From positions 237,385 to 301,384 of the forward strand of contig JANQRZ010000018.1 of NCBI GenBank assembly GCA_028284265.1: a stretch of DNA of 64,000 bases, in the 5' to 3' direction. Below, in pieces: positions 2,404 through 18,059 of the stretch. The DNA comes from Rhodothermales bacterium. GTDB taxonomy: Bacteria; Bacteroidota; Rhodothermia; Rhodothermales; JANQRZ01. Both the position numbers and the translations under genes were made by a program. Each line of letters starts with the position of its first letter. Position 1 is the first letter of the stretch. Under the pieces are notes generated by a model. It did no database searches. It was not told where the DNA came from and was given only the letters and a program-made list of their open reading frames with translations.

Positions 2404-3924
2404 ATGCGCTACACCTCCTGCCTGCTTTTCCTCCTTCTGGTTTTCGCCGGACCATCGGCGGCCCAACCTATCGAGGCAGACGGCCCGTTCCTCGTCGGTC
2501 GCACCGATGTCGTGTTCGATGATGATGTGTTCGGGCAAGGCACGATTCGAGGGCGCATCTATTACCCCGCGACCGCAGCGGGCGTGGAGACACAGCCGGA
2601 TGCGAGCGGTGGCCCATTCCCACTCGTCGCCTTCCAGCACGGCTACCTCGGGCGACCACGCAACTATGACGATCTCTGCGAGCACATCGCAAGCTGGGGG
2701 TTCGTCGTCGCCTCGACCGGCACCGAGACGGGCCTCTTTCCGAACCAACCGCAGTACGCCCGCGACACGCGCTCCCTACTCTACTACGTTGAGGATCAGT
2801 CCGATGCGCCCGGCTCATTCAACGGCATGGTAGACGACGGGCCGTGGGCGGCGTCGGGCCACTCGATGGGCGGCGGCGTGCTTGCGCTACTCATCGGGAT
2901 TGAGCCGCGGGTGCAAACGATCATCGGGTTGCAGTCGGCCTTCGTGAACGACGCCCGGATCGACAACCTCAACGCCTTTACCGGCCGCCATTTTCAGATC
3001 GCCGGATCGGTGGATGGCATCGTGCCGCCCTCGCAGGTGGTCCGCTACTTCAACGAGGCGGATGCCGCCAGCCGCAATGTTTATTTCGAGGTGATCGGGA
3101 TGGGCCATAGCGGGCCGACGGACAACGTGCCGAACAACGAGCCGCTCCCTGCCGCCGACCAGAAGCGTCTTCACAAGCGCCTCGTGACGGGCATTCTCCG
3201 GGCCGAGATCAAGGGCGAGGAAAACCTCTACGCTGAGTTGCTGGGCGAAGGCATCGCGGACGAACCCGTCGAGTTCGACGCTACCTGCACAGACCCGCCG
3301 CTGTGGGTCCGTCCGAGCACCGATCCGTCAACCGTTGTCGTAGGAACCGCCGGAGCGCCGGGAGCCGAGACCGTGCTGGCATGGTCGGATCGGCGGGGTA
3401 TGCGACCAACGCCTGTCGGTGAAATCGGCATCGCGCTTTCGCCCCAACGCATCCTCTTCCGAGGCCCGGCAGCGGCGGATGGTACAGCCGAAGCGCTGCT
3501 GCCACTAGCCGACATCGGCACCGCCGATAGCGTCTTTGTGCAAGGGCTAGCACTCGGCAGCACCGGGAGCGTCACCCGCGTAGAGGCACAGGCCACCGGA
3601 AACTCGGCAGCGCCCGTCTCGGCTGCAAGCCGGAGCACCGATGCGATAGGTACGCGCTTCATCGACGCCTATCCCAACCCATTCCGCGACGACCTCACCG
3701 TCCGCTATCACCTCGCCGAGGCCGGACCTATCGAGGTCGAAGTCTACGATGTGCTTGGCCGCAGCGTGTCCGTCCTCTCAACCAGCACCCAAGCGGTGGG
3801 CATGCACGAAGCGCGGTGGGACGGACGGGACGCATCGGGTAGAGCCGTAGCGCCCGGCCTCTACGTGATCCGTCTCCACGCAGGCGATACGCACCACTCG
3901 CACACCATCGTGCGCGTGCCCTAA
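2404..3924 (+). CDS. Secreted alpha/beta hydrolase (lipase/cutinase/dienelactone-hydrolase-like) with a T9SS C-terminal sorting domain
   Basis: Signal peptide; nucleophile elbow GHSMGGG; FPLVAFQHGYLG oxyanion region. The C-terminus (AYPNPFRDDLTVRYHL...VEVYDVLGRSV...GLYVIRL) is typical of a Por/T9SS CTD. Confidence 0.7.
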   Translation: MRYTSCLLFLLLVFAGPSAAQPIEADGPFLVGRTDVVFDDDVFGQGTIRGRIYYPATAAGVETQPDASGGPFPLVAFQHGYLGRPRNYDDLCEHIASWGFVVASTGTETGLFPNQPQYARDTRSLLYYVEDQSDAPGSFNGMVDDGPWAASGHSMGGGVLALLIGIEPRVQTIIGLQSAFVNDARIDNLNAFTGRHFQIAGSVDGIVPPSQVVRYFNEADAASRNVYFEVIGMGHSGPTDNVPNNEPLPAADQKRLHKRLVTGILRAEIKGEENLYAELLGEGIADEPVEFDATCTDPPLWVRPSTDPSTVVVGTAGAPGAETVLAWSDRRGMRPTPVGEIGIALSPQRILFRGPAAADGTAEALLPLADIGTADSVFVQGLALGSTGSVTRVEAQATGNSAAPVSAASRSTDAIGTRFIDAYPNPFRDDLTVRYHLAEAGPIEVEVYDVLGRSVSVLSTSTQAVGMHEARWDGRDASGRAVAPGLYVIRLHAGDTHHSHTIVRVP

Positions 3925-5846: not shown

Positions 5847-5965
5847 CGCATGTACGCTGCCGTCTCACCGCTCGCATCGAGAGCGACCAGCCCCCGCCCG
5901 TGTAACTATCTGTCCTCCAGTTCGGTATACGGCCGTCCTGCCTGATCGCTTATCCCAGTACCCTC

Positions 5966-6193
5966 ATGACACGTTTCCAGTCGATCCTTATTCTCGTAGT
6001 CGCCACCCTCACGATCCTCGTGCTAGGCCAAGCGTTTTGGGCACTGGTAGTTGGTGCCGGCACAGCCATCGGAGCCAGCTTCGCTGCACTCGTTGGATCG
6101 GTACCGACGTGGGCATGGTGGGTACTCTTCGGCCTTGTGATGTCGCGCTGCTGGGGTGGCGGCTGCCGGGGTCGCAAAGCTTGTAGTGCCTGA
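5966..6193 (+). CDS. Small hydrophobic protein with a Cys-rich tail (hypothetical)
   Basis: 75 aa, two hydrophobic stretches, ends RCWGGGCRGRKACSA. Only ORF-level evidence. Confidence 0.3.
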   Translation: MTRFQSILILVVATLTILVLGQAFWALVVGAGTAIGASFAALVGSVPTWAWWVLFGLVMSRCWGGGCRGRKACSA

Positions 6194-6194
6194 A

Positions 6195-8216
6195 CTACGC
6201 GGCAGGTGACGCCACGCACCCAGTCGTCTGAGCCAACTCGGCCAGCGCTTCCAAGGTGAGCGATTGTGGACCGTCGGAGAGCGCCGCGTCGGGGTCAGGA
6301 TGGGCTTCCACGATGAGGCCATGTGCTCCAGCAGCGAGAGCCGCCTGTGCGAGCGCCGGAACCCACCGCCGAACGCCCGCGGCGTGGCTCGGATCGACGA
6401 TCACCGGGAGGTGCGTCCGTTCGCGCGCGACGACCACCGACGACAGGTCGAGCGTGTTGCGCGTCGCCGTCTCGAAGGTGCGGATGCCGCGCTCGCAGAG
6501 GATCACCCGCTCATTGCCTGCGGCCAGCACGTACTCCGCCGCCGCGAGCCACTCGTCGATGCTCGCCATCATCCCGCGCTTGAGGAGCACCGGCACGCGG
6601 GTAGAGCCGACCGCCTTGAGCAGCTCGAAGTTCTGCATGTTGCGCGCGCCGATCTGGAGCACATCGGCCTCGCGGGCGACGGCCTCTACATCTGCCGGGT
6701 GCAGCACCTCGGTCACGACAGGCAGATCGTAGGCCCGGCCCGCCTCGTGGAGAAGACGCAGGCCCTCGAAACCGAGGCCTTGGAAGTCGTAGGGTAGCGT
6801 GCGTGGCTTGAAACAGCCACCTCGGAGCAGCCGCCCCCCAGCAGCCCGCACGCCGCGCGCGCTCTCGAAAATCTGCTCCCGGCTCTCGACCGAGCACGGC
6901 CCCGCGATCAGCACCGGCGGCGCATCGCCTCCGATCCGCACGCCGCCGATCTCGACTATGGTATCCTCCGACCGGCCCTCGCGACTGACCAACCGGTAGC
7001 GCTTGCCCGTCGGAGCAACCACTGGGGCGCTTGGAGCAAGGCGCGGCTTCACGGTCGGCGTAGACACCGTTGCTATGCCATCGCCGGAGGCTCCCTCCGC
7101 CGTCGCTGCTCCAGCCTGTGGGTACGACCCGAGCACACGCACCGCCGCGACGTGCTCGGCGAGTTCGGCGAGCGCGGCTTCGACCTGCTCCTCGTGTGTG
7201 CCGCCTTCGATGTCAGCGTAGAAGCGGTACCGCCACGGACCATCGGGACTCGGACGAGACTCTAGCTTGGTCAGGTTCAGTCCGCGACGCGCCAGCACCT
7301 GAAGGGCCTCAGCGAGTGCGCCGTGGCGATGGTCGGTCGTGAGCAAGAGCGAGGTCTTGTGCGGCAACCGTGCATCGTGAGCGACCCCGTCACGCGCCAC
7401 AACGACGAACCGGGTGAAGTTATCCTTTCGGTTGGCGATGTGCCGCTGGATCACGACCAGCCCGTAGCGCTCGCCCGCATCCTCGCCCGCGATGGCCGCC
7501 CGCGTCGGGTCGTTGCTCTCCGCGACGAGGCGCGCCGCCCCTGCCGTGTCGTGCTCGTCTTCGATTCGCACGTCGGTCAACCCGGCGAGGAACTGGCTGC
7601 ACTGAGCAAGCGCCTTCGCATGCGAGCCGACGTGCCGAATCTGTCCGATTGGCACGTTCTCTACAGCTAGCAGACAGTGCTCGACCCGGACCACCTCTTC
7701 GCCGACCAGCACCAAACCCCGCTCGGCGATGAGGTCGTACACGTCCTCGATGGGCCCGGCGACGGTATTCTCGATGGGCAGCACGGCTCGGTCCGCCTCG
7801 CCCCGGCGCAGCGCCTCGACGGCGTCCTGAAACGTCCGGTGCCCGGTGAACGCGAGCGCCTGCTGCCCCGCGAGATGCCGACTTGCGGCAGCGTGGCTAT
7901 AGCACCCCTCTTCCCCCTGAAACGCTACCCGGACGGCATCGCGCGGTGCCTGACGCGAGGCCTGCACCCGAATGGAGTGGTCAAGGATGCGACGATAGAC
8001 CGTCGTAGCGAAGTAGCCGTCGAGACCAGCCTCCTCAGCGAGATCGTGGATGCGACCGAGCAGGGCACGCTCGCGGCCCGGATCGTGGAGCGGGAGGGCC
8101 GGGTCGTCGAGCTTGACGGCGGCGACCTCACCGATGAGCCGCTGACGCTCGGCGAGCAGGGCGATGAGGTCGCGGTCGGTCTGGTCGAGACGGTCGCGGA
8201 GGTTGGAGAGCGGCAT
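6195..8216 (-). CDS. pheA: Trifunctional fusion: chorismate mutase (AroQ) + prephenate dehydratase with ACT domain + 3-deoxy-7-phosphoheptulonate (DAHP) synthase type I-beta
   Basis: The N-terminus ([30 protein letters not shown]) is the CM domain. The middle ([15 protein letters not shown]...[11 protein letters not shown]...[10 protein letters not shown]) is PDT, and [34 protein letters not shown] is ACT. The C-terminus ([13 protein letters not shown]...[17 protein letters not shown]...[12 protein letters not shown]...DPSH) is the DAHPS I-beta core. Confidence 0.85.
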
Positions 8217-8438: not shown

Positions 8439-8543
8439 ATAAGGGCAAGCGACCCGCATCGCGCCGCTACGACCTCCTACCGCTGCTGCCTTCCGGCCCT
8501 GACGGAGTTCAGAGGGAGCTGGCCGTACGGGACTTGCCCTTAT
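8439..8543 (-). ncRNA. ffs: Signal recognition particle RNA (small/4.5S type)
   Basis: Minus strand contains CCGUCAGGGCCGGAAGGCAGCAGCGGUAGGAG, matching the conserved domain IV core GUCAGGUCCGGAAGGAAGCAGC. The terminal helix UAAGGGCAAG / CUUGCCCUUA closes a roughly 105-nt hairpin. Confidence 0.85.
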
Positions 8544-8641
8544 TCCGCCGACAGGCCCCAATCCGGGCGGTCGGCCAAAAACCAGTGATTGCAATATACG
8601 GCGCGTTCACGCGGAGGGTTCGCGTCACGCGATTTTCAACC

Positions 8642-11086
8642 TCACAGCAAACCTACCGGGTCCACGTCTACGTTGATCCGCACGCCGTTCGGCGGCTTTC
8701 CGAATTGATCGTTGGTGGCGCGGACGAGGCGGGAGAGCGCGTACGGCTGTCCCGGCTCAGTGGACTTGACGATGGTGTGGAAGCGAAACTGCTTTTTGAC
8801 CCGTCCGATGAACGCGGGGTTCGGGCCAAGCACCTCGACCGCTCCACCCTGCTGCCGTAGCAGCCGCGTCCACCGCTCGGCGGTCTGCTGCACGGTGCGT
8901 TCGCTCGGCCCTTTGAACTCGACGCCAACGAGCTTGCCGTAGGGCGGATAGCCAAACGCCCGCCGGTCGGGTAGCTCCGTGCGGATGAATCCGGCGAAGT
9001 CGTGCCGTGCGGCGTGCTGGAGCGCGGGGTTGTCCGGGCTTCGGGTCTGGAGGATGACCTCGCCGCGCAGCGCCCCACGCCCGGCCCGACCGGCAACCTG
9101 CATCAGAAGCTGGAACGTCCGCTCCGCTGCCCGGAAATCCGGCAGCAGCAACCCCGTGTCGGCATCGACCACGCCGACGAGGGTGACGCGGGCGAAGTCG
9201 AGGCCCTTCGCCACCATTTGCGTCCCGATCAGAATGTCAGCCTCGCTTCGCCCGAATGCATCGAGGATTTTTTGATGCGCGTTCTTCCGGCCCGTCGTGT
9301 CGAGGTCCATCCGCAGGACGCGGGCGTCTGGGAAGACCTCGGCCAGTTCTTCCTCGACGCGCTGCGTCCCCGCGCCGAGACGAGCTAGGTCGGACGATCC
9401 ACACTGTGGACAGCGCGTGGGTAACGGCTCGACGAGGCCACAGTAGTGGCAGCGTAGATGGCGGTGGCTCTTGTGGTAGGTGAGCGTCACGGCACAGTCG
9501 CGGCACTCGGGCGTCCACCCACAGTCGTCGCAGGTGACGATGGGCGAGTAACCGCGCCGGTTCTGGAGGAGGATGATTCCCTCGCCTTTTTCGAGCCGGT
9601 CGCGGATCGCCTCGCGAAGCGGATGCGAGAGTGCCCCTTTGAGCCGCCGGACCTTCTTCTCCCACGTCAGGTCTACGATCTCGACCGGCGGTAGCTCCGC
9701 TGCCTTTCGGCCCGGCACGGGGACACGATCGGGCATGGTGAGTAGCTCGTACTTCCCAGCCTTCGCGTTAAGGGTGCTCTCCAAACTCGGCGTGGCGCTG
9801 CCGAGGACACAGACGGCTCGTTCGAGGTGGGCACGCATCACGGCCACGTCGCGTGCATGGTAGCGCGGGGCCGGATCGAACTGCTTGTAGCTCCCCTCGT
9901 GCTCCTCGTCCACCACGATCAGCCCGACATTTCGTAGCGGCGCGAAGATCGCCGAGCGTGGGCCGATGGCGACGTCGAACCGCCCGTTGTTCAGGTGCCG
10001 CCACGCATCGTAGCGCTCGCCCGCGCTCATGCGGCTGTGGAGCACGGCCACGCGGTCGCCGAAGTGGGCACGGAAGCGGCGGACGGTCTGTGGGGTCAGC
10101 GCAATCTCGGGGACGAGCACGATCCCGGTGCGCCCGGCCTCCAAAGTGTGCCGAAGGGCACGGATGTAGACCTCCGTCTTGCCGCTGCCCGTAACGCCGT
10201 GGAGCAGAAAGGTCTTTGTCTCGCCCGCGCCGAGCGCCGCGCCGATTTGGAAGAGCGCCTCGACCTGTCCAGCGTTGAGTTCGTGGACGGGGGGCGGTTC
10301 CGGTTCTGGCTCCGTGTCGAACGGCGTACGAACGATCTCTTTTTCGATGCGCTCGACGAACCCTTTCTCGACGAGACTTTTCACCGTCGTGCTCGACGCC
10401 CCCGTCTCGGCGAGCACGTCGGCCTGCCGAGACTCAACCTCGCCGTCAGCCTGTAATCGGGCGAGTGTTTCGATGATGGCCGTCTGCTTCGCCCCGCGCA
10501 GCGAGTCCGCTGCCTCCGGCCCGACGCCGTCCGCGAGACTGAGATGCCACTCGGTCTTGACGGTAACGCTTGCAGAAGTTAGCTCCTTCTCGACCCGAAT
10601 CAACTCATCCCGTTCGAGCCGCCGGAGCAGGCTCGCCGTGACCCCATCGATGCTTTGCTGTACGGTGCCGATGGGTTGGGGGCCGTCCGCTTCCAACAGC
10701 GCCAGCACCTGACCGCCGACGCCGTTCAGTCCAAGCGACGGGCGCTCGGTCCGGTGGACAACGCGATGGCTCTCGACGGTCGTGCCGGACGGCAGCGCAG
10801 CCTTGAGCACGTCGCCCCACGCGCAGACGTAGTAGTCGGCGATCCACTGCGTCAGCCGGAGCAGCACCGGCGAGAACGACGGTACGTCGTCCAGCACATC
10901 GAGGATCGGCTTGAGCCGCGGTCCCGCCTCGTCCGTTCGCTCGACCACGACACCCGTCAGTGTGCGCGCTCCGAACGGGATCACAACGCGCGCACCGGGC
11001 AGCGCCTCGGCCTCCAACTCTGCCGGGACGAGGTACGTGTAGACCTTGTCGACGGGCGTAAGCGGAACGACGCGGGCGGTGGGCAT
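8642..11086 (-). CDS. priA: Primosomal protein N' (replication restart helicase PriA)
   Basis: Walker A LLHGVTGSGKTEVY, DEEH box, Cys-rich zinc fingers (CDDCGWTPECRDCAV...CHYCG...CPQCGS). Start moved to MPTARVVPL at 11086 to avoid overlap with rtcA. Confidence 0.9.
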   Translation of the reverse strand: MPTARVVPLTPVDKVYTYLVPAELEAEALPGARVVIPFGARTLTGVVVERTDEAGPRLKPILDVLDDVPSFSPVLLRLTQWIADYYVCAWGDVLKAALPSGTTVESHRVVHRTERPSLGLNGVGGQVLALLEADGPQPIGTVQQSIDGVTASLLRRLERDELIRVEKELTSASVTVKTEWHLSLADGVGPEAADSLRGAKQTAIIETLARLQADGEVESRQADVLAETGASSTTVKSLVEKGFVERIEKEIVRTPFDTEPEPEPPPVHELNAGQVEALFQIGAALGAGETKTFLLHGVTGSGKTEVYIRALRHTLEAGRTGIVLVPEIALTPQTVRRFRAHFGDRVAVLHSRMSAGERYDAWRHLNNGRFDVAIGPRSAIFAPLRNVGLIVVDEEHEGSYKQFDPAPRYHARDVAVMRAHLERAVCVLGSATPSLESTLNAKAGKYELLTMPDRVPVPGRKAAELPPVEIVDLTWEKKVRRLKGALSHPLREAIRDRLEKGEGIILLQNRRGYSPIVTCDDCGWTPECRDCAVTLTYHKSHRHLRCHYCGLVEPLPTRCPQCGSSDLARLGAGTQRVEEELAEVFPDARVLRMDLDTTGRKNAHQKILDAFGRSEADILIGTQMVAKGLDFARVTLVGVVDADTGLLLPDFRAAERTFQLLMQVAGRAGRGALRGEVILQTRSPDNPALQHAARHDFAGFIRTELPDRRAFGYPPYGKLVGVEFKGPSERTVQQTAERWTRLLRQQGGAVEVLGPNPAFIGRVKKQFRFHTIVKSTEPGQPYALSRLVRATNDQFGKPPNGVRINVDVDPVGLL

Positions 11087-11144
11087 AGGGCAGGCTTCGG
11101 TGGGTGGGGAAACTACGACGGCCCCGAGCCAAACCCGATCCCGT

Positions 11145-12179
11145 TTATGCCGCTTCGTCTTGGACCCCAGCGCCGTATACCTGCACGGTTCCATCCTCCT
11201 GCTCCTCGATGTGGAGCGCGTCGGGCATGAACCGGCGGATTACGTCGATGTTGGTCCGGGCGTGTCGGGAAAGCGGCAGCGTGCGGAACGTCCCGCCGCC
11301 CGCGAGCGCGAATGGTAGCATCAACTGGTCGGCGAGGTAACGCCCAACGGGGACGCCCGCCGCGAGGTAGGTCCGTGCCTCCTCTACGGCGCTGCGCGCC
11401 ACCGCCTCGGCCCGCACACCGACACGACCGAAGCTCGCAAACACCTCGGTCACCGCTTCGCTCTCGATCTCGATGAGGAGCACGTTGCCGGGGCACGCCG
11501 CCCTGACCTCCTCGACCCGAAAACACTCCTCACCCCAGTTCATCTTTTTTGCTACGGCGTTGAGTTCGCGCTTGGCGATTCGCTTCGACAGGTTGGCGAC
11601 GATGGCGCGGGCACACCGCGCCTGAACCTCACCGCGCTCGGCGAGGTCGATGGGCGACAGCCGCTCGGCAGGCTCGATGTGGATGCGGAAGCAGCCACCC
11701 CCGGCGGGGAAGAACCCGTACTGATCCAACTCCGCCGAGACACGCGGCCCCATCCGCTCGACGAGTGGAAGGAAGCACTTCTGGAGGAAGTCAAACGGCG
11801 GTGCCCACGGGTTGTGCGTCCCGCCTTCGAGCGTCAGTTCCGACGGCTCCGGGGCCGTCAGGAGCGCAGGCAACACAGTCTGCAGCACGAGCGTCGCACT
11901 CCCCGCGGTGCCGACCGCGAAGTGATACACGCCGGGCCGAACCACACGCGGCCTGAACGTCACCGTCTGCGACCCGATGGCGTCGCCCTCGACCTTCGCC
12001 CCGCCGATCTCAGCGGCGGCACGAACGGCGGTGAGGTGCTGGCGCATCAGCCCCGGCTTATCGCGTCCGGCGCGGATGTTTTCGATACGAAAAGGCTGGC
12101 CCGTGACGAGGGAGAGCGCGAGCGACGTGCGGAGCACCTGCCCGCCGCCCTCCCCGTGGGAGCCGTCGATGTGGATCAT
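11145..12179 (-). CDS. rtcA: RNA 3'-terminal phosphate cyclase
   Basis: MIHIDGSHGEGGGQVLRTSLALSLVTGQPFRIENIRAGRDKPGLMRQHLTAV is the canonical RtcA N-terminus, including the catalytic His region. Confidence 0.9.
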   Translation of the reverse strand: MIHIDGSHGEGGGQVLRTSLALSLVTGQPFRIENIRAGRDKPGLMRQHLTAVRAAAEIGGAKVEGDAIGSQTVTFRPRVVRPGVYHFAVGTAGSATLVLQTVLPALLTAPEPSELTLEGGTHNPWAPPFDFLQKCFLPLVERMGPRVSAELDQYGFFPAGGGCFRIHIEPAERLSPIDLAERGEVQARCARAIVANLSKRIAKRELNAVAKKMNWGEECFRVEEVRAACPGNVLLIEIESEAVTEVFASFGRVGVRAEAVARSAVEEARTYLAAGVPVGRYLADQLMLPFALAGGGTFRTLPLSRHARTNIDVIRRFMPDALHIEEQEDGTVQVYGAGVQDEAA

Positions 12180-12274: not shown

Positions 12275-12487
12275 CTACCGAGGCAGCACCGCTTGAAACC
12301 GGCGACCGGAGCCGCACGGGCAGAGGTCGTTGCGCCCGAGCTTCTCGGTCAGCACCTTCCCGTCGCCGACGGTGCGGACGCCGCGCTTGACGCGGGCCTC
12401 GCTCGGGAAGCCGCGACGTCGCTTGCTCATCGGCTCAAAAGGACGCTTCGTTGTCGAATCGTTCGGGATCGTTGCGCATGATGGCAT
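12275..12487 (-). CDS. Small basic protein with a disrupted C-terminal SEC-C zinc motif (possibly frameshifted)
   Basis: Ends ...[21 protein letters not shown]. The second half of the SEC-C motif (GFKRCC) is encoded in the +1 frame of the same nucleotides. An alternative start is MSKRRRG at 12430. Confidence 0.45.
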
Positions 12488-12521: not shown

Positions 12522-14021
12522 CTAGGCGGCCCCGCGGTACTGCTTCTCCGCGTCTTTGATGACGAACCGGGCGTCGAGCGATGCGACGGAGCGCGCCAGC
12601 CCGGCCTTTTCGACCGAGGCGATTACCTCGTCGAAGTCCTTGTAGGCGTCGGGCGACTCGTCGAGCGGGTAGCGACGGCAGTTGCTCAGCACGTCTTCGC
12701 GCTCGAACGCGGCATCGACCTCGGCCTGGTCCAGCGTGCGCTTGGCGGCGCGACGGCCCATCGTGCGGCCCGCGCCGTGGTTGACGCTGTAAAGGCTCTG
12801 CGACGCCCCCGGCTCCGCCACCATCACCGCCGAGCCCGAGAGCGGGTCGCCGGGCAGGAGGATCGGGTGGCCGGTGTCGGCGAACGGCGTACCGTCGAGG
12901 CTAGGGTGGCCTGCCGGGAACGCACGCGTCGCACCCTTGCGATGCACCCACGCTTGCTCGCCGTCGAGGTCTTCGAGCCGGGCGATATTGTGGCTGATGA
13001 AGTACACGAGATCGCCCTGCACGCCGGGAAGCACCTCTTGGAAGGCCTCCAGCACAAGCGCGTTGATGAGTAGGTGGTTGACCGTCGCGAAGTTTGCGCC
13101 AAGCGACATGTCGTCAATGTAGGCGTCCGCGAGCGACGTGCCGAGCGGGGCGTAGACGAGTTGCTTGTCGCCCGCCGGGTAGGCCCAGCCTTCGCGCTCG
13201 AAGTGCTGCTCCATCGCACGGAACTGGTTCTGCGCGAGCTGATACCCGAACCCGCGCGATCCGCAGTGGCTCAGGAACGCGACATGCCCATCGCGCAGCC
13301 CGAAGTGCTCCGCGAGATCGGCCTCACCATCGGCGACGTGGACCACCTCGCACTCGCCGAAGTGGTTGCCGCCGCCGTAGGAGCCAAGCTGCCGGACCTT
13401 CGACTCGAACGCCTGAAATCCGCCATGCGATCGCAGCAAAGCGAGCCGGTCGCCGAGCGTATCCCGCGTCCCGTCGTGGCCGACGTGGAAGGCATCTTCG
13501 CAGCGCGTGGCCCAGTGCGCAGGAATCCCGAGCGCTTCGAGGACGTCTTGCGACGCACCCTCCGTCACAGCCTGCGCGCCGAGCGTGGCATCGACCGAGC
13601 GGCCCTTCGCTACCGAGCGCTGGCCCTTGCCGGGACCGGTGGGCGTGCGCTCCAGGATCGCTTCGATCAGGGCGCGACGCGTACGGCGATCTTCAATAGC
13701 ATCCGCCGGAAGGTCGAGTTGGAGCAGGCTCATCGAGCACTTGATGTCCACCCCGACCGGGCCGGGATAGATGTGCGTCGGCGACGAGAGCGCGCAGCCG
13801 ACCGGCGCACCGTAGCCGAGGTGCGCGTCGGGGTTGAGCACGAGGTCGGTGACGCCGGGTGCGGAACGGGTGTTCTGCGCCTGCGTCAGGCACACATCGC
13901 CAAACGTCTGGCGGATGGCCTCGGTGCCGATGACGGTGATCGGCGTGCCCTCGCCGCTGTGCGTGGGCAGCGTGGCAGTGGCTTCGCCGGTGGGCGTGAT
14001 GCGGGATTCGATGGAGGTCAT
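12522..14021 (-). CDS. rtcB: RNA-splicing ligase RtcB (3'-phosphate/5'-hydroxyl RNA ligase)
   Basis: [23 protein letters not shown] and [11 protein letters not shown] motifs. At 499 aa it is the long form. Confidence 0.95.
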
Positions 14022-14052
14022 GGGAGGAAAGGTATGGAGAGAAAAAACAAGC

Positions 14053-14220
14053 GGAGGACGCCCAGTCCGGGCGGGGCGACGAGGTGGTGACGAAACGTCA
14101 CTGCTCTACCACTGAGCTACAGATGCCAAAGCATCTGGCCGGAGTCGAACCGGCGACCTGTGGGTTATGGACCATGTAGTTCCGTCGGCATTCGCCCCGC
14201 CCGGAGCGGGCGCGGCCTCC
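14053..14220 (-). ncRNA. yrlA: Y RNA module M5: YrlA-like RNA with a permuted tRNA-like domain and a 3' U tract
   Basis: Outer stem CCGGGCGGGGCGA (14204-14192) pairs with UCGCCCCGCCCGG (14079-14067); inner helix GACGGAAC:GUUUCGUC. Inside are a T arm GCCGG-UUCGACU-CCGGC (14154-14138), a closed 7-bp acceptor mimic CAGAUGC-UUUG-GCAUCUG (14137-14120) and a D arm GCUC-AGUGGUA-GAGC (14117-14103). A distal extension GGAGG..CCUCC is followed by UUGUUUUUU (14050-14042). Confidence 0.75.
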
Positions 14221-14228
14221 ACAACAGA

Positions 14229-14313
14229 GGAGCGACAAGAGGGTGGCGAGACTCACGGCACAGACAGCGAGCTGCCTGCCACCGTCCGATGTAGTCCCAC
14301 CGGCATTCGCTCC
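14229..14313 (-). ncRNA. Y RNA-like module M4 (simple bulged apical hairpin)
   Basis: Outer GGAGCGA:UCGCUCC, loop AUGCC/ACCCUCUUG, inner GGUGGGAC:GUCUCGCC, then UACAUCGG. The apical part is a GGCAG-CUCG-CUGUC hairpin. Confidence 0.6.
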
Positions 14314-14327
14314 GATCAAAGAACAGA

Positions 14328-14429
14328 GGCAACGACAAGGGGTGGCACCACATCCCGCCGAGGCGGGCCGGGACTCGAACCCGAAGCCTTTCGGCTTTTA
14401 CCGATGTAGTGGTACCGGCATTCGTCACC
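14328..14429 (-). ncRNA. Y RNA-like module M3 (partial tRNA mimic: T arm only)
   Basis: Outer GGUGACGA:UCGUUGCC, loop AUGCC/ACCCCUUG, inner GGUACCAC:GUGGUGCC. The apical part holds an AGCC-GAAA-GGCU hairpin, a T-arm-like UCGGG-UUCGAGU-CCCGG (14384-14368) and a CCCGC-CUCG-GCGGG hairpin. Confidence 0.6.
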
Positions 14430-14435
14430 AGGAGT

Positions 14436-14519
14436 AGCAGCGGCAAGGGGTGGCAGGACATTCCCGGCCATAGGGGCCGGTTGCTTTTGAGGCATGTAGT
14501 CCTACCGGCATCCGCTGCC
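14436..14519 (-). ncRNA. Y RNA-like module M2 (short form with CUCAAAA loop)
   Basis: Outer GCAGCGG:CCGCUGC, loop AUGCC/ACCCCUUG, inner GGUAGGAC:GUCCUGCC. The apical part has the CUCAAAAGC element and a CCGGCC-CCUAU-GGCCGG hairpin. Confidence 0.6.
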
Positions 14520-14535
14520 GTATTCATTTCCCCGA

Positions 14536-14624
14536 GGGTGCGGCGGGCAACGAGTACCGAGACCTGTGCCCGAATGGGCAATCGTTTTGAGCGATGTAGT
14601 CCCGGCGGCATCCCGCCGCACCCC
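14536..14624 (-). ncRNA. Y RNA-like module M1 (short form with CUCAAAA loop)
   Basis: Outer GUGCGGCGGG:CCCGCCGCAC, loop AUGCC/ACUCGUUG, inner GCCGGGAC:GUCUCGGU (2 GU pairs). The apical part has an AUCG-CUCAAAA-CGAU hairpin and a UGCCC-AUUC-GGGCA hairpin. Confidence 0.55.
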
Positions 14625-14683
14625 AACAGGGGTCCGACTCAGCGAGTCGGTTTAGAGGTGAAAGGTTTCAGTTTCAGGTTGGC

Positions 14684-16255
14684 TTACAGTTCGACGCGCT
14701 CGATCTCACCGACCCAGTGGTTGGAGTCGAGACCGTGCTCGGCGAACCGGGCGATCACGTCGAAGACGCGGTCGGAGAAGCCGCCGACGTTGAGGATGTC
14801 CTCGCCGTCGGTGACCTGGCTCGTCCGGTACGGCTGGACGTCGAGGCAGACGAGGCGTGCGCGCGGGTTGCGCTGCTTGAGCGCGTTCCACTCGCGGAGC
14901 ATCGCCGTACCCCCGCCGCCCCACTGCGCGTCCACCCACGACTGGTTGTCGGAGACGAACAGCACGAGGTCGGCCTGGGCACGCTGCTTGTTCAGCCGGG
15001 CCAGCGGCGCGCTACAGTTCGTCCCGCCGCCGCCCACCGACGCGAGCCGGGTGGCGTTGGTCATGACGCTGTCGCGCGGGTTGAGCCGGACGCTGACGAC
15101 GCGGTTCTCGAACGGCAGCACCGTCGCCGACGGATTCGTCCGCAGCACCGCCGCCGTCACAAGCGAGGCAACATCGACGCACCGGACGGCGGAGGTCGCG
15201 CCGCGCCGGTACCCGGTCACGGGGCTGTGCATCGACCCCGACACGTCCGGGCAGACGACGACACGACCCTCGATTTCGGGCACGTTCTCGACGGCGATCT
15301 CCATCGCGTCCTGCAACGCAGCGCGAACTGGCTCCGGTACTCCGCTCGACGCCTGTGTGAAGGCGACCAGCAACTGGTACGGGAAGACCCGTGCCCGCTG
15401 CATGGCCTGCCGGTCGCGCAGCCGCTCGGCGATGAGGTCCGTCAAACCCTCCACATCGAACACGCCGTGGCGTGCGAACGTGTTGAGGTTCATCCGGGTC
15501 GTCTGCCACGTCGCACGGCGTGCAATCGCAGCCCACGCCTCACGGTCGAGGTCGAGCGCAGTTAGCATCTGGAACGGCACGTCCGGCACGGGAACCGACG
15601 GGTCGCGCTTGAACCGCTCGAAGTCACGGACGACCTCAGGCAGGAGCGCGGCGTCGTGCTCGCGGCCAAGCAGGTAGCCGTAGAAGGCGGCCCGCTCCGG
15701 CGTCGCCGGGGTCGGGTGGACCATCTTGACGATGTCCGCCAGCGACGGCGACTGCCCCACCGAGGCGTAGAACAACTGCGTCTCGGTGCGTGCGGCGAGC
15801 CAGCTACGGACCATCCGCTTCGGTGCCGACCCGAGCGACTTCCGCCCGACGGCTCCCGACCGCATGATCTGCACGAACGTCCGCAGCATCCGGCTGTTGT
15901 CGATCACACGCGGGAAGATCCGCTCCAAGAGCCGGATGTCCGCCTGCGGCCGACCGGTATCGGCGAGCGCAGCGCAGAGCAACGCGGGCATGTCCTTCAT
16001 GAAGGCGTGCTCGCGGGCGTAGACCGCTGTGCGAGCGACGAAGTCTCCATCGAGGTTGGCCGCCAGCTTCAGCACCGTGTCGAGTTGACTCTCTGCCGAT
16101 GCGTAGAACGTGGCGTTGAGGCAACCGGTCGCAGCGAACTGAGCGAGCGCGTGCTTCGGCGTGAAGGCATAGGCGGGTGCCCCCTCACGGTTAACCGCAT
16201 CGGTGGCCGGCGCACGCCGACCGCGAAGCGTGTTGAAGAGTGCGAGGTTGACCAT
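14684..16255 (-). CDS. rsr: Ro60 ortholog Rsr (TROVE domain + vWA domain)
   Basis: N-terminus LFNTLRGRRAPATDAVNREGAPAYAFTPKHALAQFAATGCLNATFYA (TROVE). C-terminal vWA domain with MIDAS motif VVCPDVSGSM. Genomic context with rtcB, rtcA and rtcR. Confidence 0.9.
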   Translation of the reverse strand: MVNLALFNTLRGRRAPATDAVNREGAPAYAFTPKHALAQFAATGCLNATFYASAESQLDTVLKLAANLDGDFVARTAVYAREHAFMKDMPALLCAALADTGRPQADIRLLERIFPRVIDNSRMLRTFVQIMRSGAVGRKSLGSAPKRMVRSWLAARTETQLFYASVGQSPSLADIVKMVHPTPATPERAAFYGYLLGREHDAALLPEVVRDFERFKRDPSVPVPDVPFQMLTALDLDREAWAAIARRATWQTTRMNLNTFARHGVFDVEGLTDLIAERLRDRQAMQRARVFPYQLLVAFTQASSGVPEPVRAALQDAMEIAVENVPEIEGRVVVCPDVSGSMHSPVTGYRRGATSAVRCVDVASLVTAAVLRTNPSATVLPFENRVVSVRLNPRDSVMTNATRLASVGGGGTNCSAPLARLNKQRAQADLVLFVSDNQSWVDAQWGGGGTAMLREWNALKQRNPRARLVCLDVQPYRTSQVTDGEDILNVGGFSDRVFDVIARFAEHGLDSNHWVGEIERVEL

Positions 16256-16297: not shown

Positions 16298-16314
16298 TGC
16301 CAAGCGCCGTGCCA
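16298..16314 (-). promoter_or_regulatory. Sigma54 (-24/-12) promoter for rsr-Y RNA-rtcBA
   Basis: Minus strand reads TGGCACGGCGCTTGGCA against the consensus TGGCAC-N5-TTGCA (one extra G in the -12 element). It sits about 43 nt upstream of the rsr ATG and is divergent from the sigma54 activator gene rtcR. Confidence 0.55.
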
Positions 16315-16331: not shown

Positions 16332-16384
16332 CGAATCGACCTAAAATCGCCCGAATCGACGATTCTACATTTCCCAAACTCGAC
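16332..16384. promoter_or_regulatory. Candidate RtcR upstream activating sites (direct repeats)
   Basis: CGAATCGAC occurs at 16332-16340 and 16352-16360 (20-nt register), with a degenerate third copy AACTCGAC at 16377-16384. The repeats lie between the sigma54 promoter and rtcR. Confidence 0.3.
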
Positions 16385-16454: not shown

Positions 16455-18059
16455 ATGTCCCAAACGGTTGCACTCGGCCTGCTCGGCGTCTCGCTCGACG
16501 GTAGCAAGGGCACCGCCGCACGCTGGGAGCGGTGGCGTCCGAGCGTCGCGCTCTGCCAGCACGAAGACCTCCTCATCGACCGCTTCGAGTTGCTCCATCA
16601 GCCGAAGTTTGCCGACACCGCCGAGGCCGTCGCCACCGACATCCGCACCGTCTCGCCGGAGACCGACGTGCGCCTCCACACACTCGACTTCGATGATGCG
16701 TGGGACTTCGAGGAGGTCTTCCGCACGCTCCACGACTTCGCCGTCGACTACCCCTTCGACCCCGACGCCGAGGACTACCTCGTCCACATCACGACGGGCA
16801 GCCACGTCGCCCAGATCAGCCTCTTCCTCCTCGTCGAGAGCCGGTTCTTTCCGGCCCAGCTGATCCAGACCAGCCCGCCGCGACGAAGCAACGCCAACCC
16901 CGCCGGGTCCTACCGACTCATCGACCTCGACCTCTCGAAGTACGACCGCCTCGCCTCGCGCTTCGAGCAAACATTCTGGGAGGACCTCGACTTCCTCAAG
17001 TCCGGCATCCAGACGCGCAATGCTGCCTTCAACGCGCTCATTGAGCAGATCGAGCGCGTGGCGATCTACTCCCGCGACCCGATACTACTGACAGGGCCGA
17101 CGGGCGCAGGCAAGAGCCAACTCGCCCGACGGATTTACGAACTGAAGCAAACGCGGCGACAGGTTGAGGGCGCATTCGTTGAGGTCAACTGTGCGACACT
17201 GCGGGGCGATCAAGCGATGGCAGCGCTGTTCGGGCATACCAAGGGCGCATTTACCGGTGCCGCTCGCGCCCGCCCCGGCCTCCTCCGCACCGCTGACGGC
17301 GGCGTCCTTTTTCTCGACGAGATTGGCGAGCTAGGACTCGATGAGCAGGCGATGCTGCTGCGGGCACTCGAAGAGAAACGCTTCCTCCCTGTCGGAGCCG
17401 ACGCCGAGGTTGAGAGTGATTTCCAACTCATCGCCGGGACCAACCGAACGCTCACCGATGCTGTCCGGGGGGGCGACTTCCGCGAAGACCTCTTCGCTCG
17501 GATCAACCTCTGGACCTTCCGCCTCCCAAGCCTCCGCGAGCGCCCCGAAGACATCGAGCCGAACCTCGACTACGAGCTATCAAAGGCCGCCCACCGGCTG
17601 AACCAGATGGTGCAGTTCTCGACCGAGGCACGCGCGCAGTTTCTGACCTTCGCCACCTCGACCGAGGCGCGCTGGAGTGCCAACTTCCGCGACCTCAACG
17701 CTGCAGTTACCCGGATGGCAACGCTAGCTCCCGGCGGGCGCATCACCGAAGACGTAGTCACGGATGAGATCGAACGCCTGCGCGCAGCATGGGCCGAGCC
17801 TTTCGATGCACCGGGACAAGACACGGAGCGCCTGCACCAACTTCTCGGTGGCGCAGCCAACGACCTCGACCTCTTCGACCGAGTGCAACTCGCCGAGGTG
17901 AGCCGTGTCTGCGCGCAGGCTCCGTCGCTGTCGGAGGCAGGTCGCCGCCTGTTCGCCGAGTCCCGCAAGCGGAAGAAAACGAGCAACGATGCGGACCGTC
18001 TCCGCAAGTATCTCGCCCGCTTTGGGCTGACGTGGGATGACCTCCATTCCGCACCTTGA
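16455..18059 (+). CDS. rtcR: Sigma54-dependent transcriptional activator RtcR (CARF-like N-domain + AAA+ + HTH)
   Basis: AAA+ Walker A LLTGPTGAGKSQLA and the GAFTGA sigma54-contact motif (HTKGAFTGA). The roughly 190-aa N-terminal domain is typical of RtcR. Divergent from the rsr/rtcBA operon. Confidence 0.9.
   Translation: MSQTVALGLLGVSLDGSKGTAARWERWRPSVALCQHEDLLIDRFELLHQPKFADTAEAVATDIRTVSPETDVRLHTLDFDDAWDFEEVFRTLHDFAVDYPFDPDAEDYLVHITTGSHVAQISLFLLVESRFFPAQLIQTSPPRRSNANPAGSYRLIDLDLSKYDRLASRFEQTFWEDLDFLKSGIQTRNAAFNALIEQIERVAIYSRDPILLTGPTGAGKSQLARRIYELKQTRRQVEGAFVEVNCATLRGDQAMAALFGHTKGAFTGAARARPGLLRTADGGVLFLDEIGELGLDEQAMLLRALEEKRFLPVGADAEVESDFQLIAGTNRTLTDAVRGGDFREDLFARINLWTFRLPSLRERPEDIEPNLDYELSKAAHRLNQMVQFSTEARAQFLTFATSTEARWSANFRDLNAAVTRMATLAPGGRITEDVVTDEIERLRAAWAEPFDAPGQDTERLHQLLGGAANDLDLFDRVQLAEVSRVCAQAPSLSEAGRRLFAESRKRKKTSNDADRLRKYLARFGLTWDDLHSAP

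Follow-up and report, generated by a model that had tools for sequence, protein, structure and literature searches.

The window analysed here, a stretch of 64,000 nucleotides from an uncultured Rhodothermales bacterium, contains a gene for a Ro60 orthologue embedded among RNA-repair genes. The Ro60 gene, rsr (14684..16255, minus strand), encodes a protein of 523 aa that matched Pfam vWA_Ro60 at 62.8 bits together with TROVE, and that aligned over its full length with the Deinococcus radiodurans Rsr (PDB 2nvo, E 2e-17). Directly downstream of rsr lies an array of five tandem Y-RNA modules, followed by the RNA ligase gene rtcB (12522..14021, minus strand; Pfam RtcB, 340 bits) and the RNA 3'-phosphate cyclase gene rtcA (11145..12179, minus strand; Pfam RTC, 269 bits; NCBIfam equivalog, 455 bits). 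Divergent from rsr is rtcR (16455..18059, plus strand), which encodes a sigma-54-dependent activator with a CARF-like RtcR domain (Pfam RtcR, 266 bits, and Sigma54_activat; NCBIfam RNA_repair_RtcR equivalog, 804 bits). Divergent rtcR followed by rsr, Y RNAs, rtcB and rtcA is the layout of the Salmonella-type rsr-yrl-rtcBA operon, the setting of Salmonella Typhimurium YrlA (RF02553; PDB 6CU1). The original prediction, made from the DNA letters, had assumed RtcR, RtcB and RtcA in the context of the RNA, and both Pfam and NCBIfam confirmed this; the sensing of tRNA fragments by RtcR, which it also invoked, is already published (Hughes 2020, PMC7790460). A sigma-54-like promoter (TGGCACG-GCGC-TTGGCA) is predicted at 16298..16314 on the minus strand, 43 nt upstream of the rsr ATG. 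Its -24 element TGGCACG is invariant in two related loci, L060 and L061, and its -12 element is off-consensus with TTGG rather than TTGC, so that a search with the strict sigma-54 pattern TGG-N8-TTGC missed the site, which was recognised on reading the letters directly. From the sequence we infer that the site may function as a sigma-54 promoter of rsr.

The fifth and last module of the array (M5; 14067..14204, minus strand) combines a Ro60-binding stem with a tRNA-like effector domain and, by Rfam match, covariance model and fold, has the make-up of a complete YrlA-type Y RNA. On the strand that also encodes rsr, its 5' terminus (14204) comes 480 nt after the rsr stop codon (14684), and the rtcB start codon follows 46 nt past its other end. 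The Rfam YrlA model RF02553 matched M5 at 14198..14070 (minus strand) over model positions 1-114 of 114 with 70.2 bits against a gathering threshold of 69 (E 4.4e-14 in the 64-kb window), which is the sole above-threshold YrlA match in the window; the margin of 1.2 bits is small because, compared with the Rfam consensus, the variable region of M5 carries 14 inserted nucleotides. Our own covariance model R1 scored the module at 120.7 bits (14201..14067). Chen et al. 2014 (PMC4201824), who described the YrlA class and its permuted topology, took as YrlA the best Infernal match less than 4 kb from a Ro60/TROVE gene on the same strand; M5 has this position and orientation, carries the GNCGAAN0-1G motif near its 5' end, and presents T arm, acceptor-like stem and D arm in that order with the tertiary-contact nucleotides. 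The suggestion that M5 has the topology of the YrlA tRNA-like domains and should be compared with an Infernal YrlA model was thus borne out on both counts. Considering match, position and structure together, we regard M5 as the YrlA-type Y RNA belonging to an RNA-repair operon (rsr / Y-RNA / rtcB / rtcA) under RtcR control, with a probability of roughly 0.85.

Inspection of M5 from 5' to 3' on the minus strand recovered every predicted element in the predicted order and correct to the base. The two ends of the RNA pair as helix 1, in which CCGGGCGGGGCGA (14192..14204) faces UCGCCCCGCCCGG (14067-14079) over 13 bp with 13/13 pairs canonical. The segment GGCGAAUG (14189..14196) reads as the GNCGAAN0-1G motif named by Chen 2014 and is a putative Ro60/Rsr contact. 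An asymmetric internal loop, AUGCC / ACCACCUCG, lies between helix 1 and helix 2, the latter formed by GACGGAAC (14179..14186) and GUUUCGUC (14089-14096) over 8 bp. CUAC (14176..14179) is the conserved YUAY, likewise named in Chen 2014, that opens the variable region, and both CGAAUGC and ACUACA are invariant in alignment A1 of 13 Rfam-level homologues. The long variable region (14155..14175, 21 nt) consists of AUGGUCCAUAACCCAC and a variable-loop-like AGGUC (14159..14155) equivalent to tRNA positions A44 G45 G46 U47 C48. The T arm GCCGG-UUCGACU-CCGGC (14138..14154), supported by conservation and covariation, is succeeded by the acceptor-stem-like hairpin CAGAUGC-UUUG-GCAUCUG (14120..14137), by the UA linker equivalent to U8-A9 (14118..14119) and by the D arm GCUC-AGUGGUA-GAGC (14103..14117), which supplies A14, G15, G18, G19 and A21; A26 (14102) comes directly after it, and U55 and U20 are present in their canonical loops. 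The hairpin is, as had been claimed, a closed helix of acceptor length, with 7 bp capped by a tetraloop, and the statement that there is no free CCA end holds for the gene, in which no CCA is encoded. Covariation supports a 3-bp anticodon-stem stub (CAC 14162..14160 with GUG 14101..14099); this stub, enclosed by the 13-bp and 8-bp helices, is all that M5 has of an anticodon arm, in agreement with the proposed replacement of that arm by a Ro-type stem.

The minimum free energy fold of M5 contained the T, acceptor-like and D hairpins as well as the terminal helix and, compared with 200 dinucleotide shuffles, had a z of -5.4; such a fold and Rfam match lie well outside what chance would give. Pair probabilities from ViennaRNA were 0.99 for the acceptor-like stem, the T stem and helix 1 and 0.91 for the D stem. 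The inner Ro-type helix reached just 0.06 because a non-conserved local hairpin, GUGACG-UUU-CGUCAC (14101..14087), competes with it; in the naked RNA ViennaRNA preferred this hairpin to the inner helix (-69.0 vs -62.4 kcal/mol). The hairpin was not found in the orthologues L060 and L061 and is therefore treated as incidental, and its interpretation as a real anticodon-arm mimic or conformational switch was rejected on the same grounds.

Conservation was evaluated over 54 Ro60 loci, which supplied 81 related modules; 66 domains of these were parsed by motif. A total of 167 related modules were located in the 54 loci and the window. Every one shares the strand of rsr and, apart from two marginal matches (L043 6940-7100; L024 2003-2085, E 0.75), none is more than about 1.4 kb from rsr. 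Across the 81 homologues, 96.7% of cells were paired, as opposed to 72% after shuffling and 37-48% in slid controls; the paired percentages are somewhat inflated because the M5 sequence is part of the model to which alignments A2 and A3 were fitted. Double changes occurred at 32/37 pairs and every helix covaries. Helix 1 displayed them at 8/8 modelled pairs, helix 2 covaries at six of its eight pairs (98.3% of cells paired in alignment A3), and all three pairs of the anticodon-stem stub and all seven of the acceptor-like stem covary. The T stem was 100% paired with covariation at 3/5 pairs, and the D stem was 99% paired with compensatory GUUC/GAAC and ACUC/GAGU variants. Loss of the UUCGA and GG elbow nucleotides from orthologues had been named as an observation that would overturn the mimic, and the opposite was found. 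U54 and A58 are present in 81/81 homologues, U55 and C56 in 80/81, A14 in 80/81 and G18 in 79/81; the UA linker occurs in 66/66 parsed domains (U in 79/81 and A in 77/81 of the aligned set), and the D-loop GG likewise in 66/66. The G19 alignment column reads G in just 66/81, a shortfall probably explained by D loops of differing length that displace the column. G46 is conserved in 72/81, and the Levitt position 15:48 is G15:C48 in 61 homologues, A15:U48 in 15 and other in 3.

The length of the acceptor-like stem is also maintained. In L060, whose Ro is 90% identical to that of the window, the hairpin reads CGGGUGC-UCCG-GCACCCG, again 7 bp with two compensatory pairs, and in L061 it reads CCGCCCG-AUUCAC-CGGGCGG, also 7 bp; in the three orthologues of the M5 lineage, the 7-bp length is thus held by compensatory changes. 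Seven base pairs is the modal length of the 66 parsed domains (23 exactly 7 and 42 with at least 7). Our first motif-based classification called about 50 modules 'T-arm only', a count that overstates the D-less modules since many of the high-scoring ones have complete covarying D arms.

The four sister modules, all on the minus strand, show a stepwise loss of the tRNA-like domain within the same array. M3 (14323..14431; R1 50.5 bits, Rfam YrlA 32.4 bits) retains the Ro stem, a V-like hairpin, the T arm CGGG-UUCGAGU-CCCG and an acceptor-like hairpin, and has no D arm. M1 (14535..14621; R1 40.8 bits) and M2 (14432..14521; R1 43.8 bits, detected only with filters off) consist of the Ro stem only; in M2 the change of CGAAUG to CGGAUG is compensated by a change of UCG to CCG in the 3' strand. 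M4 (14223..14316; R1 42.6 bits; Rfam YrlA 24.4 bits, below threshold) is a YrlB-like, Ro-stem-only and decayed paralogue. The M4 of L060 retains a T arm and a UAGCUCAGU remnant where the M4 of the window has deletions.

The resemblance of M5 to tRNA raises the question of whether it is one. ARAGORN detected no tRNA genes in the 64-kb window or in isolated M5, and no tmRNA in the window. When M5 was re-permuted and given a borrowed anticodon arm, ARAGORN called a 75-nt tRNA, while none was called in five controls whose D, V and T segments had been shuffled. Both statements of the original prediction, that M5 is not a tRNA gene and that a tRNA finder should fail on it, therefore stand, as ARAGORN finds a tRNA only after re-permutation. 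A canonical tRNA gene was rejected based on the UUUG closure of the acceptor-like stem, the 3-bp stub in place of an anticodon arm and the negative ARAGORN result, and a permuted tRNA gene that matures into a functional tRNA was rejected for lack of a complete anticodon arm. Having no anticodon loop and no encoded CCA, M5 cannot decode. The Deinococcus Y RNA Yrn1 (RF01053) was also rejected, its best match in the region being 21 bits on M3 against a gathering threshold of 80.

M5 might alternatively be a functionless leftover of two adjacent tRNA genes, the first contributing its T arm and the second its D arm, so that the YrlA model would have matched a pseudogene or returned a false positive. 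Chen 2014 warned that YrlA scores can arise from dimeric tRNAs, an origin of YrlA from dimeric tRNA transcripts was proposed by Wang 2018 and by Sim & Wolin, and the L007 locus has real tRNAs interleaved with YrlAs. However, no tRNA is detectable in the window, the supposed spacer is a perfect and covarying 7-bp hairpin, and the flanks of M5 form a Ro-binding stem with conserved motifs rather than acceptor or anticodon arms. The module stays beside rsr in relatives with 90% and 69% Ro identity and has acquired compensatory substitutions there, which indicates purifying selection rather than decay; real decay, by contrast, looks like M4. With covariation of the acceptor-like and Ro stems and conservation in orthologues against it, a tandem-tRNA remnant was rejected and is almost certainly wrong. 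A different reading makes the structure a cis-acting leader of rtcB, in which the fold and a downstream U-rich tract attenuate read-through. A terminator-like hairpin does lie directly after M5 (stem 14064..14048, U6 14047..14042, minus strand), 20 nt before the rtcB start, but the stem is weak (just 3/6 of its pairs are G-C) and neither hairpin nor U tract is conserved in L060, which has an array 83% identical in other respects, and the intrinsic terminator or attenuator was consequently dropped. YrlA modules are moreover positioned upstream of rsr, away from rtcB, in Cardiobacterium and Neisseria loci, and the Mycobacterium smegmatis YrlA is upstream of rsr and outside RtcR control. A leader function is accordingly highly improbable.

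For M5 itself, our analysis established the sequence, the propensity to fold, membership of the family, covariation and the operon context. Regarding function, binding of YrlA by Rsr, its Psi55 and D modifications and its crystal structure in an L-shape were shown in species other than this one, and we infer the expression, processing, partner and physiological role of M5. The RNA would probably be excised from an operon transcript that apparently starts upstream of rsr, at the sigma-54-type promoter. The two ends of the RNA are expected to pair as a two-helix stem carrying GGCGAAUG, to be bound by the Ro60 (Rsr) ring, a binding for which the conserved motif and the linkage to rsr speak. The middle would fold as a tRNA L-shape in which the T stem stacks on the closed 7-bp acceptor-like stem and the D stem stacks on the 3-bp stub leading to the Ro stem, with an elbow presumably held by G18/G19 with U55/C56, by U8:A14, U54:A58 and the G15:C48 Levitt pair, and by a G46 triple. 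A crystal structure of YrlA with this L-shape and a conserved elbow was reported by Wang 2018 (10.1101/312249), and the tRNA call that ARAGORN made on re-permuted M5 lends indirect support to such a shape here. In its most likely role, the tRNA-like domain may be the effector arm of the Rsr ribonucleoprotein, acting as a very stable, nuclease-resistant, tRNA-shaped handle for proteins that bind tRNA elbows. Modification enzymes such as TruB and DusA could hold this handle, and PNPase or RtcB are candidate partners, through which Rsr would be joined to RNA decay or repair activities once tRNA damage turns the operon on. Salmonella YrlA is a substrate of TruB (Psi55) and DusA (D20) (PMC4201824), and regulation of the operon by damaged tRNAs has been described (PMC7790460). 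On the opposing side, deletion of the T arm of D. radiodurans Yrn1 left complex assembly undisturbed (PMC4201824). A literature search for newer functional data on YrlA returned none beyond Chen 2014, Wang 2018 and Hughes 2020/2023.

The domain could also serve as a decoy instead of a tether for Rsr; by engaging an anticodon nuclease, the RtcR CARF domain or RtcB, it would damp tRNA cleavage or tune induction of the operon. The idea of a decoy or guide in the original prediction is speculation that parallels a published one, in which YrlA competitively inhibits an anticodon nuclease or assists RtcB as a cofactor. Induction of the operon follows when tRNA halves or nicked tRNAs with a 2',3'-cyclic phosphate end bind RtcR (PMC7790460; PMC10159003), and YrlA, which is uncut by the anticodon nuclease, could be such an inhibitor (Hughes 2020, PMC7790460). 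M5 has no anticodon loop and is therefore not itself cleavable there, and its level would rise on induction since it would be co-transcribed with the repair genes. RtcR, however, binds 5' halves that carry a cyclic phosphate end, and an intact closed mimic has none to present; a pure decoy would need neither the conserved Ro60-binding stem nor the linkage to rsr seen in 54/54 loci; we consider a decoy unlikely.

A variant of the effector-arm explanation concerns the acceptor-like stem, which may not stay closed in vivo, as a 7-bp stem is a known RNase P determinant in M. smegmatis YrlA. After an RNase P cut at 14127/14126, where the loop G meets G+1, the half upstream of the cut would be trimmed and given CCA, and mature M5 would be a two-piece, CCA-tailed mimic held together by the Ro stem. 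Cleavage of the M. smegmatis YrlA by RNase P was attributed to its 7-bp acceptor stem and CCA addition was shown in vivo (Chen 2014, PMC4201824), a statement on RNase P and the 7 bp that Wang 2018 (10.1101/312249) repeats, and in the lineage of M5 the 7 bp, also the modal length, are kept through compensatory changes. Of the 42 relatives whose stem has 7 bp or more, 9 have a loop that begins with NCCA, where about 0.7 are expected, and 4 more have one that begins with NCC. Such an enrichment suggests that several lineages make use of an opening here, and the NCCA after base pair 7 in proteobacterial relatives hints at widespread opening there. In contrast, the M5 loop is UUUG only, with neither C74/C75 nor a single-stranded leader, the L060 loop UCCG is a stable UNCG-type tetraloop that looks selected for closure, and most YrlAs are poor RNase P substrates in the judgement of Wang 2018. 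Opening of M5 is thus rather unlikely. A further step, decidedly improbable, is that the 7 bp are held because RNase P opens M5, with RtcB resealing the break or RtcA processing the ends of a nicked CCA-tailed mimic on Rsr; if true, the repair operon would have in YrlA a substrate or sensor of its own and not a passive handle.

Comparison with described RNAs places M5 in context. Salmonella YrlA and M5 have in common the order of Ro stem, variable region, T arm, closed acceptor-like stem, UA, D arm and Ro stem, the GNCGAAN0-1G and YUAY motifs, the elbow and triple nucleotides, and the absence of both anticodon loop and CCA. They differ in the acceptor-like stem (7 bp with a 4-nt loop in M5, 6 bp with a 3-nt loop in Salmonella), the Levitt pair (G15:C48 versus A:U), the variable region (long, 21 nt, versus short), the array (five modules versus two, YrlB and YrlA) and the host, here a Rhodothermales (Bacteroidota/Rhodothermota) bacterium. 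The M. smegmatis YrlA resembles M5 in its 7-bp acceptor-like stem, and its companion YrlB, with which it is processed from one precursor, resembles M3 in having a T arm only; the M. smegmatis Y RNAs, however, are located upstream of rsr, are not RtcR-controlled and were shown to be RNase P-cut and CCA-tailed, whereas the M5 loop encodes no C74. D. radiodurans Yrn1 is a Ro60/Rsr-bound Y RNA with a T arm that tethers Rsr to PNPase, the model for the mechanism proposed here, but unlike M5 it lacks a full D arm, its arms are oriented differently and its intervening stem is at the anticodon rather than the acceptor position. Circularly permuted tRNA genes of Cyanidioschyzon merolae and some archaea likewise place the T-arm half before the D-arm half with an acceptor stem initially closed by a loop, but their precursors have a complete anticodon arm and yield working tRNAs, where M5 has a 3-bp stub running into a Ro60-binding stem and no anticodon. 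The tRNA-like domain of tmRNA, the viral tRNA-like structures and the predicted b7a-tRNA are, like M5, non-decoding copies of the tRNA elbow. The first two have free CCA ends and are aminoacylated, unlike M5; b7a-tRNA is, as is M5, linked to RtcB, but it is a tRNA of normal topology tied to a Band-7 protein and not to Ro60.

M5 is a fresh example of the already described YrlA class and not a discovery, and the original prediction, though correct, repeats what Chen 2014 and Wang 2018 had published; it matters little as such because the family, the permuted topology, the crystal structure and the Ro60/RtcB linkage are published and a public Rfam model finds it. Its value is one of annotation, in that an uncultured Rhodothermales bacterium has a complete RtcR-controlled Ro60 / Y-RNA / RtcBA cassette, and no such cassette was present at the syntenic site in the closest relatives examined. 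M5 also provides a clean comparative data point for an actively maintained 7-bp acceptor-like stem in its lineage, and well-resolved natural YrlA variants of this kind may help the choice of constructs for experiments on tRNA-mimic function.

The M5 module, a YrlA-type Y RNA, reads on the minus strand (14204..14067) as CCGGGCGGGGCGA-AUGCC-GACGGAAC-UACAUGGUCCAUAAC-CAC-AGGUC-[GCCGG UUCGACU CCGGC]-[CAGAUGC UUUG GCAUCUG]-UA-[GCUC AGUGGUA GAGC]-A-GUG-AC-GUUUCGUC-ACCACCUCG-UCGCCCCGCCCGG. The original prediction had described this RNA as a circularly permuted tRNA mimic with a closed 7-bp acceptor stem, and all of its elements were found at the order and coordinates claimed. RNAfold predicts the T, acceptor-stem-like and D hairpins as well as a 13-bp terminal helix (MFE -74.2 kcal/mol; z = -5.4 against dinucleotide shuffles), with pair probabilities of 0.99 for the acceptor-like stem, 0.99 for the T arm, 0.91 for the D arm and 0.99 for helix 1 of the Ro60-binding stem that the module ends form. 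As had been anticipated, a tRNA finder came back empty while an Infernal YrlA model matched: ARAGORN reported 0 tRNA and 0 tmRNA over the whole 64-kb window, and Rfam YrlA (RF02553, 'Y RNA-like') aligned over its full model length at 14198..14070 (-) with 70.2 bits (gathering threshold 69, E 4.4e-14). The margin is narrow because an insertion of 14 nt enlarges the variable region of M5. M5 is a textbook YrlA, detectable by a public Rfam model, and the interpretation offered with it is supported; YrlA may not have been listed in this lineage before.

In tRNA numbering, the D side of M5 supplies U8, A9, the D stem (10-13/22-25), A14, G15, G18, G19, A21 and A26; the variable loop supplies A44, G45, G46, U47 and C48; and the T side supplies the T stem (49-53/61-65), U54, U55, C56, G57 and A58. 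The 7-bp stem occupies positions 66-72/1-7 and is capped by UUUG. The domain was re-permuted by joining the 3' strand of the acceptor-like stem, UA, the D arm, A26, an anticodon arm borrowed from E. coli tRNA-Ala, AGGUC, the T arm, the 5' strand of the acceptor-like stem and UCCA. ARAGORN reported a 75-nt tRNA in this construct, with none in native-order M5 and none in five controls whose D, V and T segments had been shuffled. Directly after A26, at the anticodon-arm position, lies a local hairpin, GUGACG-UUU-CGUCAC (14087-14101, -). In naked M5 RNA it is predicted to beat the inner helix of the Ro60-binding stem (-69.0 versus -62.4 kcal/mol; pair probability 0.91 versus 0.06), and has no conserved counterpart in L060 or L061, the Ro60 loci of two relatives from the same lineage.

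Searching for Ro60 protein relatives yielded 54 loci from many phyla, and Rfam YrlA scored above threshold, often twice per locus, in those scanned with it. A covariance model built from M5 and 12 Rfam-level homologues (R1) detected 167 modules in the 54 loci and the window, arranged in arrays that run from a single module to about eight. Every one shares the strand of rsr and, apart from two marginal matches (L043 6940-7100; L024 2003-2085, E 0.75), sits no more than about 1.4 kb from that gene. The 81 best modules (E < 1e-15) were aligned to the model. Canonical pairs filled 96.7% of pair cells, compared with 72% after column shuffling and 37-48% after sliding the partners by 1-3 columns, percentages that are inflated since the alignment was fitted to the model. 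Two-sided changes occurred at 32 of 37 pairs, including 7/7 pairs of the acceptor-like stem; its pair 4 (GC 24, UA 21, CG 15, UG 11) exemplifies a per-pair diversity that is independent of model fitting. The Levitt pair was C48:G15 in 61 modules, U48:A15 in 15 and other in 3, and a motif-based parse of 66 domains gave 52 G:C and 14 A:U with 0 exceptions. The D stem is mostly GCUC/GAGC, with compensatory variants GUUC/GAAC, ACUC/GAGU and GUCU/AGAC. The original prediction held that the UUCGA and GG elbow nucleotides should persist in orthologues, and they do: U54 and A58 are present in 81/81 modules, U55, C56 and A14 in 80/81, U8 and G18 in 79/81, and the D-loop GG in 66/66 parsed domains.

Whether the acceptor-like stem stays closed is the point on which M5 might depart from its description. 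By a strict terminal-helix count, this stem spans 1-10 bp across the 66 parsed domains, with a mode of 7 (23/66) and at least 7 bp in 42/66. Seven base pairs are common to M5 (CAGAUGC-UUUG-GCAUCUG), L060 (CGGGUGC-UCCG-GCACCCG, with two A-U to G-C compensations; Ro60 90% identical to that of the window) and L061 (CCGCCCG-AUUCAC-CGGGCGG; 69%), although the sequences are unrelated. RNase P cleaves the YrlA of M. smegmatis, which acquires CCA in vivo, and a 7-bp stem was unique to it among the three species studied (Chen 2014, PMC4201824), so M5 could be opened and CCA-tailed likewise. However, most YrlAs were judged poor RNase P substrates (Wang 2018, 10.1101/312249), M5 encodes no C74/C75 and the L060 loop is a UNCG-type tetraloop. 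The latter two features favour a stem that stays closed in M5, and opening of the M. smegmatis kind appears unlikely there. It is more improbable still that the conserved 7-bp stem marks a mimic opened by RNase P and resealable by RtcB.

Some other members of the family carry a different loop. Among relatives with an acceptor-like stem of at least 7 bp, the loop right after base pair 7 reads NCCA in 9/42, against about 0.7 expected by chance in a statistic that ignores kinship, with NCC in a further 4 and NC in a further 15. The modules for which this was noted include L020 5835-5973, L019 6777-6914, L033 3340-3642, L053 3503-3642, L022 3546-3688, L042 5702-5848 and L043 5945-6077. This loop looks like an encoded discriminator plus CCA, and its sequence suggests that the stem undergoes RNase P-type opening in five or more proteobacterial lineages, on the pattern of M. 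smegmatis YrlA. The UUUG loop of M5 has no NCCA-type sequence.

R1 resolved the rsr-rtcB gap into five tandem Y-RNA modules on the minus strand, with M1-M4 (14223-14621) preceding M5 at linkers of 0-21 nt. M1 (14535-14621, 40.8 bits), M2 (14432-14521, 43.8 bits) and M4 (14223-14316, 42.6 bits) consist of the Ro60-binding stem only, M3 (14323-14431, 50.5 bits) has a T arm and an acceptor-stem-like hairpin with no D arm, and M5 (14067-14201, 120.7 bits) holds the complete tRNA-like domain. In M1 and M2 the A-U pair of CGA/UCG is replaced by G-C (CGG/CCG). L060 and L061 likewise have arrays of five modules, and other Ro60 loci have up to about eight. The fourth module is a complete tRNA-like YrlA in L061; its L060 orthologue (2880-3017) keeps the T arm CCGGG-UUCGAUC-CCCGG together with UAGCUCAGU, a remnant of the D arm; and M4 of the window has three deletions exactly where L060 has that T arm and remnant. 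Read from sequence, this series shows stepwise decay of a duplicated YrlA, and the plain modules therefore look like decayed YrlA paralogues, the full mimic being kept in M5 only.

Neighbouring genes were identified with Pfam and NCBIfam. The locus has the same layout as the Salmonella rsr-yrlBA-rtcBA operon (PMC7790460; PMC9879122): rtcR (16455-18059, +; RtcR equivalog, 804 bits), rsr (16255..14684, -; vWA_Ro60 and TROVE, full-length match to D. radiodurans Rsr, PDB 2nvo, E 2e-17), the 662-nt non-coding gap between rsr and rtcB, rtcB (14021..12522, -; Pfam RtcB, 340 bits) and rtcA (12179..11145, -; Pfam RTC and NCBIfam equivalog). The rsr start has a sigma-54-like site, TGGCACG-GCGC-TTGGCA (16314..16298), 43 nt upstream, and two lineage relatives keep its -24 element unchanged. 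Just upstream of this site, a direct repeat CGAATCGAC (GTCGATTCG on the rsr strand; 16332-16340 and 16352-16360, 20 bp apart), partly conserved in L060, may be an RtcR enhancer site. The hairpin CCGACUC-GCU-GAGUCGG (14634-14650, -), 33 nt past the rsr stop codon and ahead of M1, has no U tract after it and may be a processing or stability element. Between rtcB and rtcA, a 51-aa ORF (12275-12430, -) ends in a SEC-C-like CPCGSGRRF motif without the final Cys/His pair; it is called in the Logan annotation with a weak PF02810 match. The longest priA ORF (8642-11194, 850 aa) shares 50 nt with rtcA. Its homologues measure 804-830 aa and align to 96% of it, which puts the true start probably about 36 codons further into the ORF.

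By its PriA, the organism belongs among uncultured Rhodothermales, in agreement with a Bacteroidales-type small SRP RNA (RF04183, 98.1 bits; 8439-8546, -) found in this 65% GC genome. In the three closest PriA relatives (79-86% identical) the order is tkt, rpe, a 146-148-aa response-regulator gene, priA; that regulator gene stands in place of the segment 11138-18107 (about 7 kb; rtcA-rtcB-Y array-rsr-rtcR), which this syntenic region lacks. The more distant L061 carries the cassette in the same place, near rpe, and the nearest Ro60 proteins outside the lineage are acidobacterial (64-69% identity). Given this patchy presence, the unit from rtcA through rtcR behaves as an accessory unit; its GC content is not distinct. 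In L007, from a Calditrichia MAG, genuine tRNA genes (5910-5983 and 6144-6220; Rfam tRNA, 61 and 53 bits) sit in between YrlA modules downstream of rsr, which fits the published proposal that YrlAs arose from dimeric tRNA transcripts (10.1101/312249).

In other species YrlA is bound by Rsr, and part of Rsr and YrlA co-purifies with PNPase. Salmonella YrlA is modified by TruB and DusA at tRNA-equivalent positions (PMC4201824), and in crystals the tRNA-like domain takes a tRNA-like L shape that shows the same tertiary contacts (10.1101/312249). RtcR turns the operon on once it has bound tRNA halves or nicked tRNAs with a cyclic phosphate end (PMC7790460; PMC10159003). The 'decoy or guide' idea put forward for M5 is plausible and already in print as speculation (PMC7790460); among the papers searched, no newer one settles it. 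At this locus, M5 would be excised from the operon transcript and its terminal stem would bind Rsr. The bound RNA would then present an elbow-binding partner with a tRNA-shaped arm that resists nucleases.
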